Below are positions 39,847 to 40,500 of a stretch of DNA of 64,000 bases, one piece after another. Source of the DNA: a virus (taxonomy: Duplodnaviria; Heunggongvirae; Uroviricota; Caudoviricetes); IMG/VR virus record IMGVR_UViG_2565956614_000003; one strand, given 5' to 3'. Position numbers and translations under genes: made by a program. Position 1 is the stretch's first letter. Every line of letters starts with the position of its first letter. Under the pieces are notes generated by a model that made no database searches, had not been told where the DNA came from, and saw nothing but the letters and a program-made list of their open reading frames with translations.

Positions 39847-40309
39847 ACTTGCCGGGTACGTCTCCGGCGAGGGCTTCCACCTCCGTATGCTTTTCGGCGC
39901 ACCGCGCCCTGGCTGCAATTCGGTAACAGGGGATGCACAACCCTGGCTTCCAGCGTGATTAGCGCCTTCAGCATGACGGGATATACCCGTAAATTCGTGG
40001 AACTGTACCCAAAGTGCTGTTAAGCACCGCTGTTACGCTGAAAAGAAAACGCAACAGGAAAGGACGCTGACCAACAGATGGCCCCTTCTCGTTCATCTGG
40101 TTAATCACACCAGCGCCCTTACCTGTTGTGCCTCCCCGTTCCCTAATACACAGACGGGGACACTCTGCGGTCGATTTTTTGACGGGGGACGACTCATACC
40201 CCGTGGCATCTGGCTTCTTAGGCCGCTACCATCATCAGATCATCGTTTGCATTTACTTTAATGGTCAGTTTCTAAACCGCCGCAAAGTCGCTAACCATGA
40301 CGAAAACCC

Positions 40310-40335
40310 TGAAAAAAACGCCCACCCGAAGATGG
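40310..40335 (-). terminator. intrinsic terminator or attenuator inside the tRNA operon leader
   Basis: Minus-strand GCCCA-UCUUCGGG-UGGGC followed by GUUUUUUUC, about 200 nt downstream of the operator. Confidence 0.4.
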
Positions 40336-40500
40336 GCAAACTGGAAGCTCGTAACGCACTTCGGCGTTGCCACTTAGGCGCATGGTCAACCTGGCAACTC
40401 GGTGGTTTGTCTGGGAGGGCTAGGCCCAGCCATGCTTACCGCCGCGCCTGTCGCGGCTAACAGCTAAATCGCTCTATAAATCACGATTCATTGAGGCGAT

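Follow-up and report, generated by a model that had tools for sequence, protein, structure and literature searches.

The DNA analysed in this study (hereafter the window) is a stretch of 64,000 nucleotides (nt) from a P1-like phage, virus record IMGVR_UViG_2565956614_000003, and we report here on the 654 nt of its minus strand that lie between a C1 operator and the gene of tRNA-Asn (40500-39847). This interval carries an RNA module of ~175 nt with the layout of the message half of a transfer-messenger RNA (tmRNA, SsrA): a tag reading frame that lacks a start codon is followed by a hairpin and two pseudoknots, and a 5' domain in front of it is complementary to the tmRNA of Escherichia coli. The most modest reading of the data is that the module represents a widespread and structurally well-supported family of phage RNAs which is absent from Rfam. 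Beyond this, we tentatively propose, with rather less than even confidence, that the module docks on host tmRNA, masks the template of the host and offers its own. The further claim, that temperate enterobacterial phages including P1 encode a half-tmRNA which hijacks trans-translation by forming a chimeric host-virus two-piece tmRNA, is doubtful and is put forward with corresponding reserve.

The module starts directly after an intrinsic terminator (Table 1). A covariance model built from 27 sequences, all of them non-P1 homologues, located it in the window as a single copy (40308-40137 on the minus strand, 98.4 bits, E = 6e-27) and did not match E. coli ssrA. No family of Rfam 15 reached its threshold on the module. 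In a permissive Rfam scan, the tmRNA_permuted model matched 40323-40218 with 24.1 bits, against a threshold of 47, and the source of this match was the string formed by UAAAU and the whole tag frame, from its GCA to its UAA; the beta_tmRNA model gave 14.1 bits in the window, against a threshold of 84. Every homologue examined was sub-threshold too, the tmRNA_permuted model giving 21-32 bits and the alpha and beta models 15-24 bits.

An exact-pattern scan, whose collection of viral loci understates the diversity of the family, found the module in at least 120 viral contigs, many of which are of the lambdoid or siphophage type with 45-48 kilobases (kb). The carriers comprise P1-like phages, Klebsiella phage-plasmids and lambdoid-type contigs, and there are also representatives from Erwinia, Pantoea, Rouxiella and Escherichia; a genome scan with short gapped patterns returned mostly random matches, and 5 of its 45 loci were real. 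Among complete E. coli genomes, 689 of 5426 matched the module, mostly on P1-like plasmids. The whole 654-nt leader was matched by 638 plasmid records, and its most distant homologues were in Klebsiella phage-plasmids, where the match is confined to the module. In addition, the module was found without tRNAs nearby, and elsewhere with a promoter of its own or inside other RNA arrays. In several phages it lies only a few nt after a strong promoter (TTGACA-N17-TAGATT), and therefore nothing upstream can be part of the RNA in those phages. By these comparisons, the module is an RNA element in its own right, and it has been conserved among temperate phages of enterobacteria that are not related to one another.

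The tag frame of the window encodes ANDDLMMVAA (codons at 40250-40221, stop codon at 40220-40218), a peptide which resembles the E. coli tag ANDENYALAA. It has no in-frame AUG, GUG or UUG start and no Shine-Dalgarno sequence, and an in-frame UAG is located 8 codons upstream. Tags were compared over 131 instances, which comprised 33 distinct nucleotide versions and 16 peptides, among them ANDDLMMVAA, ANDDVVLMAA, ANEEMYLAVA, ANDEQFLAVA, ANDDLMLMAA and ANDNTFLAVA. All 33 nucleotide variants have 10 codons and then a stop, and stops are present in the other two frames in 32 and 26 of them, respectively. Positions 3 and 4 vary only within D, E and N, positions 5 to 8 are hydrophobic or aromatic (position 5 is sometimes Q, T or R instead, and a single Q is found at position 8), and all four synonymous codons (GCC, GCG, GCU and GCA) are in use for the final Ala, giving the overall pattern AN[D/E]x-hydrophobic-AA/VA. 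The tag frame is under coding constraint. An AUG-initiated mini-ORF (open reading frame), MQTMI*, overlapping the tag was also considered and was rejected, as neither its length nor its sequence is conserved.

In these respects the module is like tmRNA (RF00023): its start-less frame opens with GCA-AAC-GAx, encodes AN[D/E]... in 10 codons, as in E. coli, and ends with hydrophobic residues and AA or VA. The likeness extends to the sequence in front of the tag. The A-rich linker places a U at -5 and an A at -4 before the resume codon, the positions held in E. coli tmRNA by U85 and A86, and 12 nt separate the last block paired with tmRNA from the phage resume codon, while in the host molecule pseudoknot 1 and the resume codon are 11 nt apart. 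It is by U85 and A86 that the resume frame of E. coli tmRNA is set.

Also as in tmRNA, the stop codon sits in the loop of a hairpin, here one that is similar to helix 5, and H-type pseudoknots follow. In the alignment of the 27 sequences, 91.3% of the cells were paired, compared with 35-42% when the partners were slid by 1-3 columns. Changes on both sides were present in 12 pairs, and none of 500 shuffles matched the observed covariation score. Both stems of both pseudoknots contribute to this covariation, and compensatory changes were also seen in helices 1 and 2 of the alignment, which form the helix-5-like hairpin. Helices 3 and 4 (pseudoknot A) are each 99% paired, with both sides changed in 3 of 5 and 2 of 4 pairs, respectively. 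In pseudoknot B, one pair of helix 5 of the alignment appears as C-G, U-A and G-C, both sides are changed in 3 of the 4 pairs of helix 6, and the stem length ranges from 4 to 8 base pairs (bp) among homologues with complementarity in all of them. It must be noted that the covariance-model alignment left the P1-type pseudoknot strands out of register, so that P1-type compensatory changes were read from the sequence and not counted; in this regard, S2 of the P1-type pseudoknot A (GUCG/CGAC) differs from the consensus CCGA/UCGG in all four pairs and keeps the pairing. The initial annotation of this DNA had pointed to several GC-rich stem-loops at about 40130-40190. These are real, but they are stems of the two H-type pseudoknots (40204-40133) and not simple hairpins. 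Intramolecular partners for the conserved 5' blocks of the module were sought as well, and were rejected as the options were only weak and wobble-rich.

Unlike tmRNA, the module has no acceptor stem, no T-arm, no CCA and no pseudoknot 1, but two downstream pseudoknots only; there is no sequence similarity past the first tag codons, and the Rfam scores remain at 14-32 bits, against thresholds of 47-84. No pseudoknot was found upstream of the tag, and the 5' region is antisense to pseudoknot 1 of the host instead, a feature which is unlike that of any tmRNA. The first ~47 nt of the module are the colinear antisense of the 3' half of pseudoknot 1, the linker, the resume codon and tag codons 1-5 of tmRNA. 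In the module types, (A/G)GUUUUCGUC pairs with GACGAAAACU, which corresponds to host tag codons 3-6; in the window, the block GGUUUUCGUC pairs with GACGAAAAC (host tag codons 3-5). GCGAC pairs with GUCGC, which covers positions -3 to +2 at the resume codon of the host, and UUUGCGG, CUUUUUA and CUGACC pair with CCGCAAA, UAAAAAG and GGUUGG of host tmRNA, respectively. A 10-bp block and a 12-nt block are included in the complementarity.

The duplex of the window domain had an RNAduplex energy of -46.3 kcal/mol. Dinucleotide shuffles gave a mean of -36.3 (standard deviation 3.1) and 2 of 300 were as good, as were 3 of 342 natural background segments of 363 nt. The six module types paired with nt 54-106 of E. 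coli tmRNA in one colinear duplex of -41 to -47 kcal/mol; for the three types tested against shuffles, the means were -30 to -36 and 0-2 of 300 shuffles reached the observed value, while against the natural background all six were reached by 0-3 of the 342 segments. In agreement with this, the reverse complement of the window domain aligns colinearly to ssrA 68-104 (E = 0.002), and those of the module types align to nt 68-105 with 72-78% identity (E = 4e-5 to 5e-3, for a single subject). The pairing of the 5' domain with the tag region of the host (-18.6 to -24.1) is about two-fold stronger than that with the tag region of the module itself (-9.2 to -14.4), which has diverged at the complementary positions (AAU versus GUC before the resume codon and GAUGAUCUG versus GACGAAAAC after it). 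The rare variants GCGGC, GUGGC and GCGAU still pair with the host GUCGC through wobble pairs, and in a Salmonella plasmid the change of CUGACC to CCGACC turns a U.G pair into C-G. Moreover, where the 5' domain is variable and prone to indels, bulges are predicted, and the antisense blocks are among the most invariant parts of the module.

Table 1. Coordinates of the features in and around the operator-to-tRNA interval of the window.
Feature	Position	Strand	Basis and remarks
Promoters P2ban and P1ban	40499..40544	-	mapped over from P1 record features 68651-68696
Divalent C1 operator (P1 Obanab, formerly Op72ab)	40501..40528	.	pattern search and P1 annotation; overlaps last codons and stop of dmt
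Terminator-ended RNA unit, P1 'dicF-like region', ~180 nt	40312..40492	-	P1 annotation, homology, terminator scan; start assumed
Intrinsic terminator, GCCCAUC-UUCG-GGUGGGC + U7	40312..40338	-	terminator scan and sequence
tmRNA-like 'tag RNA' module without tRNA-like domain, conserved core	40132..40309	-	covariance model
Antisense domain, complementary to E. coli tmRNA nt ~57-105	40263..40309	-	RNAduplex and alignment
A-rich 12-nt linker AUUAAAGUAAAU	40251..40262	-	sequence; nearly invariant in 27-43 homologues
Tag frame GCA AAC GAU GAU CUG AUG AUG GUA GCG GCC UAA (ANDDLMMVAA*)	40218..40250	-	codon analysis
Helix-5-like hairpin with last tag codons; GGC-CUAAGAA-GCC inside GGUA/UGCC	40205..40230	-	sequence
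Pseudoknot A, S1 ACGGGG 40204-40199/CCCCGU 40187-40182	40170..40204	-	covariation
Pseudoknot A, S2 GUCG 40193-40190/CGAC 40173-40170	40170..40204	-	covariation
Pseudoknot B, S1 CGCAG 40169-40165/CUGUG 40153-40149	40133..40169	-	covariation
Pseudoknot B, S2 UCCCCG 40160-40155/CGGGGA 40138-40133	40133..40169	-	covariation
Long hairpin cassette CACAACAGGUAAGGGCGCUG...CAGCGUCCUUUCCUGUUGCG	40050..40130	-	minimum free energy (MFE) -37.9 kcal/mol, z = -5.6
Distal segment before tRNA-Asn	39847..40049	-	three-way alignment; fold z = -0.9
tRNA-Asn(GUU)	39846-39772	-	ARAGORN; Rfam tRNA
tRNA-Thr(UGU)	39769-39694	-	ARAGORN; Rfam tRNA

The mechanism that we propose would begin at the ban promoters, which in P1 would first yield the ~180-nt unit related to the dicF locus and ending at the terminator. 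The module RNA of P1 would arise by read-through of this terminator and processing, while in other phages it would be made from its own promoter. Its 5' domain would anneal to host tmRNA, occluding the resume codon and tag of the host, and the phage resume codon would then be about as far from the tmRNA body as that of the host is. Translation by ribosomes that Ala-tmRNA-SmpB has rescued would continue on the tag encoded by the phage, and the outcome would be a hybrid host-virus two-piece tmRNA, a 'tag swap' by which rescued proteins would receive a tag specified by the phage. The closest formal likeness is to the two-piece tmRNAs of alpha- and beta-proteobacteria and cyanobacteria, in which the tag template also resides on a separate RNA that needs a base-pair tether; the best Rfam matches of the module, sub-threshold as they are, are likewise to permuted models. 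In those tmRNAs, however, a single gene gives rise to both pieces, which are held together by the acceptor stem and helix 2, whereas no acceptor piece is encoded with the module, and the tether proposed for it is the antisense duplex with the one-piece tmRNA of the host across pseudoknot 1 and the tag region. Viewed in this way, the module resembles such a coding piece to which a trans-acting antisense RNA has been added.

Several points weigh against this docking mechanism. The module as a discrete RNA, its pairing with tmRNA in vivo and the translation of its tag are predictions from sequence. The tmRNA of E. coli K-12 stood in for those of all hosts. The RNAduplex statistics are lenient, with large loops tolerated and a few background segments reaching similar energies, and the significance of the duplex energies, although present, is not overwhelming. 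In addition, part of the complementarity could come from an inverted duplication of an ssrA fragment, and pairing to nt 57-78 would need pseudoknot 1 of the host to be opened. The 12-nt block AGAAACUGACCA (40270-40259), which is near-invariant among modules, is weakly explained by the pairing model, its pairing being that of CUGACC with GGUUGG with two wobble pairs included. Besides, the promoter scan of the window detected no promoter of its own for the P1-type module, which is located behind a strong terminator; therefore, it must depend on read-through, as the tRNAs and ban do, and on processing. Finally, the phage tags still look like ordinary degradation tags and the benefit of a swap is not evident. 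With respect to the 12-nt block, a string similar to it in the same sense, AAGACUGAC, was observed near the 3' end of E. coli tmRNA.

The same complementarity is the basis of a different explanation, in which the module is purely an antisense RNA against tmRNA. It would block tmRNA or trigger its cleavage by RNase III, tagging would be shut down while the phage develops and the tag of the module would not be translated, with the tmRNA-like 3' half merely stabilising the RNA or recruiting the same RNA-binding proteins. Antisense-guided cleavage by RNase III is a standard mechanism of phages and plasmids, and this was counted in its favour. Nevertheless, we consider a purely antisense function unlikely, as it leaves unexplained the length, stop codon, D/E changes, hydrophobic positions and synonymous last Ala codons of the tag frame throughout the 33 variants, as well as the mimicry of the frame-setting context of tmRNA in U-5/A-4 and in linker length. 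Phage tmRNAs are known, including a form which consists of the tRNA-like domain only (PMC11915505). The tmRNA without coding sequence (CDS-less) of mycobacteriophage DS6A, which like the module is half a tmRNA in a phage, has been reported to inhibit host tmRNA (cited in PMC11915505) and is thus a precedent for the antisense explanation; it keeps the tRNA-like domain and has no tag, whereas the module is the opposite half, with a tag and no tRNA-like domain. Neutralisation of a host or phage RNA by pairing with a phage RNA, here proposed for the module, is also the mode of action of the AgvB and AsxR sponges and of lambda OOP. Unlike them, the module would target tmRNA and not an Hfq-dependent small RNA or an mRNA, with ~35-40 bp in several blocks, and it also bears a putative replacement template. 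A full-text search of the literature, with most subscription journals outside it, gave no description of the module, of any phage form that is the converse of the one with the tRNA-like domain only, or of any antisense RNA to tmRNA.

It could also be argued that the module is a structured RNA whose function has nothing to do with tmRNA pairing, such as a decoy for ribosomal protein S1 or another factor that binds tmRNA, or a 5' stabiliser or processing platform for the array, and that the complementarity to ssrA is a by-product of inverted duplication. The module usually comes first in an array of RNAs, with flanking hairpin cassettes that resemble processing sites, which would suit such a role, as would the strong conservation of the AGAAACUGACCA block, for which pairing is a poor explanation. 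We regard this as quite improbable, given that the antisense blocks are among the most invariant parts and the predicted bulges are the variable ones, that the tag region of the module itself has diverged exactly where self-pairing would occur and that the coding constraint on the tag frame would be left without explanation.

By the defining test the module is not a tmRNA, despite having the build of a tmRNA message half. ARAGORN found no tmRNA in the window or in ~48 related loci, and many module-bearing loci have no tRNA at all. The RF00023 model had no match in the window at E <= 0.5 and none in the local search at E <= 10. A complete tmRNA was therefore rejected, neither ARAGORN nor the Rfam tmRNA models having found a tRNA-like domain. 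An element composed of a T-arm, 7 nt complementary to the 5' end of the module and NCCA was sought within 3 kb in 129 instances, and only 3 chance matches to a tRNA were obtained. Nor were the duplexes of the module with the tRNA-like RNAs of Klebsiella and of contig L115 (see below) any better than those of shuffles. On these grounds (no complementary acceptor strand, pairing at the level of shuffles), a two-piece tmRNA with a local acceptor piece was also discarded. The terminator hairpin was considered as the closed acceptor stem of a permuted tmRNA; its stem is readable as 7 bp, and a shift by one nt would yield G3.U70. This candidate was discarded as there is no T-arm upstream and no CCA, Erwinia has a different terminator of 12 bp and promoter-proximal modules have no hairpin.

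Self-contained tRNA-like RNAs of ~130-155 nt were observed in two Klebsiella phage-plasmids (L004, at 1753-1906, and L006) and after the module in L115. In them, a 5' strand and long internal helices are followed by a canonical T-arm and then by the 3' strand with U-CCA, as in GGGUGAU...GCGGGUUCGAUUCCCGC-GUCACUC-U-CCA; they carry G2.U71 and not G3.U70, and ARAGORN gives no call on them. One possibility is that they are CDS-less and tmRNA-like, another that they are tRNA-like molecules of a novel kind. An insert at the 5' end of the L006 module, GGAGUGAU, matches the 3' end of the tRNA-like RNA, and this was attributed to chance, as L004 has the same 3' end and a different insert. In the window, the distal segment before tRNA-Asn aligns with the Klebsiella tRNA-like RNA; its T-arm is degenerate (CAGGG-UUGUGCAUC-CCCUG) and it is without CCA, and no Rfam match was found in the segment (40049-39847).

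These RNAs bear on another explanation, that of a complete but unconventional phage tmRNA, in one or two pieces, with an unrecognised tRNA-like domain for which the distal segment, the tRNA-like cassettes of the array and the Klebsiella tRNA-like RNA are the candidates. The last of them (~154 nt, with a T-arm and GUCACUC-U-CCA) is located downstream of the module, the P1 distal segment aligns with it and T-arm-like hairpins are common in the arrays, all of which would fit. Even so, this explanation is, of those weighed here, the one to which we give least credit: ARAGORN and the Rfam tmRNA models found nothing, many module-bearing loci have neither a tRNA nor an element with T-arm and CCA, a complementary acceptor strand was absent in the 129 instances bar the chance matches, the complementarity to the RNAs with a tRNA-like domain was not above shuffles, and the T-arm analogue of P1 is degenerate and without CCA.

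With regard to its genomic context, the ban-operon tRNA stretch (38500-40600) is 99% identical to that of phage RCS47 and ~98% identical to that of phage P1, whose record presents in the homologous stretch the end of dmt, Obanab (formerly Op72), P1ban/P2ban, a "dicF-like region", tRNA-Asn and tRNA-Thr, with trnI and ban farther downstream. From this identity and these features, the 654-nt interval is placed in the 5' part of the C1-repressed ban operon, transcribed on the minus strand of the window. It is a chain of RNA genes rather than one leader. By pattern search, a perfect match to the C1 operator ATTGCTCTAATAAATTT was located at 40512-40528 on the minus strand and a second copy, inverted, overlapping and with 2 mismatches, at 40501-40517 on the plus strand, next to the end of the dmt ORF at 40519; operator-like C1 sites numbered 15 in the window, against 0.44 expected by chance. 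The P1ban and P2ban promoters overlap this operator and were missed by a strict sigma-70 promoter scan of the window; the -10 hexamer of P1ban is TAATAT (40504-40499). The Rfam tRNA scores of tRNA-Asn and tRNA-Thr were 73.9 and 74.9 bits, respectively.

The initial annotation had described a perfect pair of C1 operators at 40501-40529, followed by about 650 nt up to the first tRNA with no minus-strand ORF of 60 amino acids (aa) or more. The pair is real, with one perfect half and the two mismatches in the other, and the length holds, as does the statement on ORFs, the longest on the minus strand of the interval having 46 aa. The small ORFs of the interval (<=46 aa) are not kept intact in relatives at 82-88% identity and were rejected as protein genes. 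The 110-aa ORF of the plus strand (40128-40460), which runs across exchangeable segments, was rejected too. A conserved small protein gene, which had been named as contrary evidence to a regulatory RNA in this place, is thus absent from the interval, which does carry the conserved start-less frame of 10 codons of the tmRNA-tag type.

The intrinsic terminator, which had been noticed at about 40310-40335, consists of an 8-bp stem with a UUCG loop (40338-40319) followed by T7 (40318-40312) on the minus strand. As the ban promoters overlap the operator and this strong terminator is located ~180 nt downstream of them, a short C1-controlled RNA ending at the terminator, as had been suggested, is plausible. 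The start of this ~180-nt unit at ~40492, a few nt past the -10 hexamer of P1ban, is an assumed transcription start; the fold of the unit had z = -2.1 relative to shuffles. How much short RNA is made relative to the module, the tRNAs and ban farther downstream is probably also determined by the terminator, and there is no sign that this ratio is regulated.

The block 40456-40362 of the unit has 75-79% identity to chromosomal copies in E. coli, with matches in 4199 of the 5426 complete genomes. Its K-12 counterpart (1649188-1649284, ~77% identity) is located 100-200 nt upstream of dicF in prophage Qin. In this block, and in being a short RNA that would end at a terminator inside a prophage operon, the unit is like the dicB-operon leader and its DicF RNA, and these two features, flanking homology and a terminator-ended short RNA, are those of the dicF locus that it has. 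Unlike at that locus, neither the 53 nt of DicF nor its seed is conserved in the window. The Rfam DicF model (RF00039) had no match in the window in a run which gave 76.7 bits on K-12 dicF, a local permissive run gave no DicF match in the leader either, and the 3' part of the unit is unrelated to DicF and has a different terminator-bearing end. DicF itself is therefore ruled out as the identity of the unit, and the P1 label "dicF-like" appears half right, the homology being to sequence upstream of dicF and not to DicF. A weak STnc100-like match was observed right after dicF in the Qin prophage of K-12 (L130, 1133-1342), which suggests that the leaders of the Qin dicB operon and of P1 ban were both drawn from one pool of RNA modules.

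The initial annotation had also suggested an attenuator. As an alternative to the docking module, the interval could thus be an attenuator or leader which tunes the expression of the tRNAs and ban, with the downstream structures as incidental folding. A strong terminator with a GC-rich stem and U7 does lie between the C1-controlled promoters and the tRNAs, and the folding of the leader as a whole is more stable than that of dinucleotide shuffles (z = -3.1). All the same, the attenuator did not find support and is very unlikely. The MFE fold of 40492-40312 retains the terminator and no competing antiterminator was seen in it, kinetic alternatives being outside this analysis, and no riboswitch or leader family that could serve as a sensor was found in the Rfam scans of the window and leader. 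The best-conserved structure starts only after the terminator and forms a mobile module, which is found with promoters of its own and in places without tRNAs, and in which selection acts on the pseudoknots and the tag frame themselves. Moreover, the upstream ~160 nt are freely swapped among P1-like plasmids while the terminator stays joined to the downstream module; in one group of these plasmids homology exists only from the terminator hairpin onward, the breakpoint being exactly at the hairpin start. In a Salmonella P1-like plasmid (L176, 640-740), the upstream unit was swapped and the hairpin kept, with the recombination breakpoint at the first base of the hairpin. Erwinia phyllosphaerae (L147) has a different and longer (12-bp) terminator at the same position before the module.

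Downstream of the module, the stem sequences of the long hairpin at 40130-40050 recur at 39690-39605 and 39489-39400 and also flank modules in lambdoid-type contigs, so that these hairpin cassettes are a repeated family framing modules in RNA arrays. Past tRNA-Thr, the minus strand at 39693-38770 is an array of long hairpin cassettes of the form CACAACAGGTAAGGG...cargo...CCCTTACCGTTGTGATGAA (~39690-39605 and 39489-39400). The cargo of one of them is tRNA-like, with the T-arm GAGGGTTCGAATCCCTAC, and an array spacer (38799-38919) has a weak Rfam match to STnc100. The segment 39475-39617 of the window is ~98% identical to the lambdoid phages mEp460 and IME207. In P1 and RCS47, plp and upl are annotated on the opposite strand across this cassette array, and for this reason these coding sequences look doubtful; the plp and upl ORFs are probably arrays of RNA modules. 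Between the array and tRNA-Met(CAU), at 37721-38548 on the minus strand, there is a lipoprotein-like ORF of 275 aa, annotated in relatives as an SPFH-domain protein or a serine protease. Reference P1 carries tciA, tciB and tciC in its place, so that exchange extends to the cargo beyond the RNA array. In the 45-48-kb phage contigs L105 (2950-3700), L104, L117, L036, L072 and L170, the module is the first element of an RNA array driven by the near-consensus promoter TTGACA-N17-TAGATT; that of L105 is moron-like, on the opposite strand between the major tail and tail-completion genes.

Other RNA loci were observed in the window. Two loci of the immunity-I type, with a C4 antisense RNA and isrK-like, are on the minus strand at 11914-12103 and 60889-61095 (C4 scores of 75.9 and 69.6 bits, respectively), and the presence of two C4 loci in one 64-kb P1-like stretch is unusual. 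A sok antitoxin RNA is located at 57258-57432 (97 bits).

Few phages have been used in genetics as much as P1, and its annotation in this stretch has so far been no more than a "dicF-like region" and empty space; the "non-coding" regions around it are arrays of RNA modules. Pairing of the module with tmRNA, if real, would make it the first known example of a viral RNA directed at ribosome rescue through base pairs, and use of its tag, if it occurs, would be the first instance in which a virus re-templates a ribozyme-like machine of its host. If true, this would have a bearing on old observations of ssrA-dependent phages, and trans-translation would gain a handle that is natural and programmable. 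It would also account for an element that is conserved in hundreds of P1-like phage-plasmids, including carriers of mcr and of extended-spectrum beta-lactamase genes, and that is found in prophages of E. coli, Klebsiella, Salmonella, Erwinia and Pantoea.

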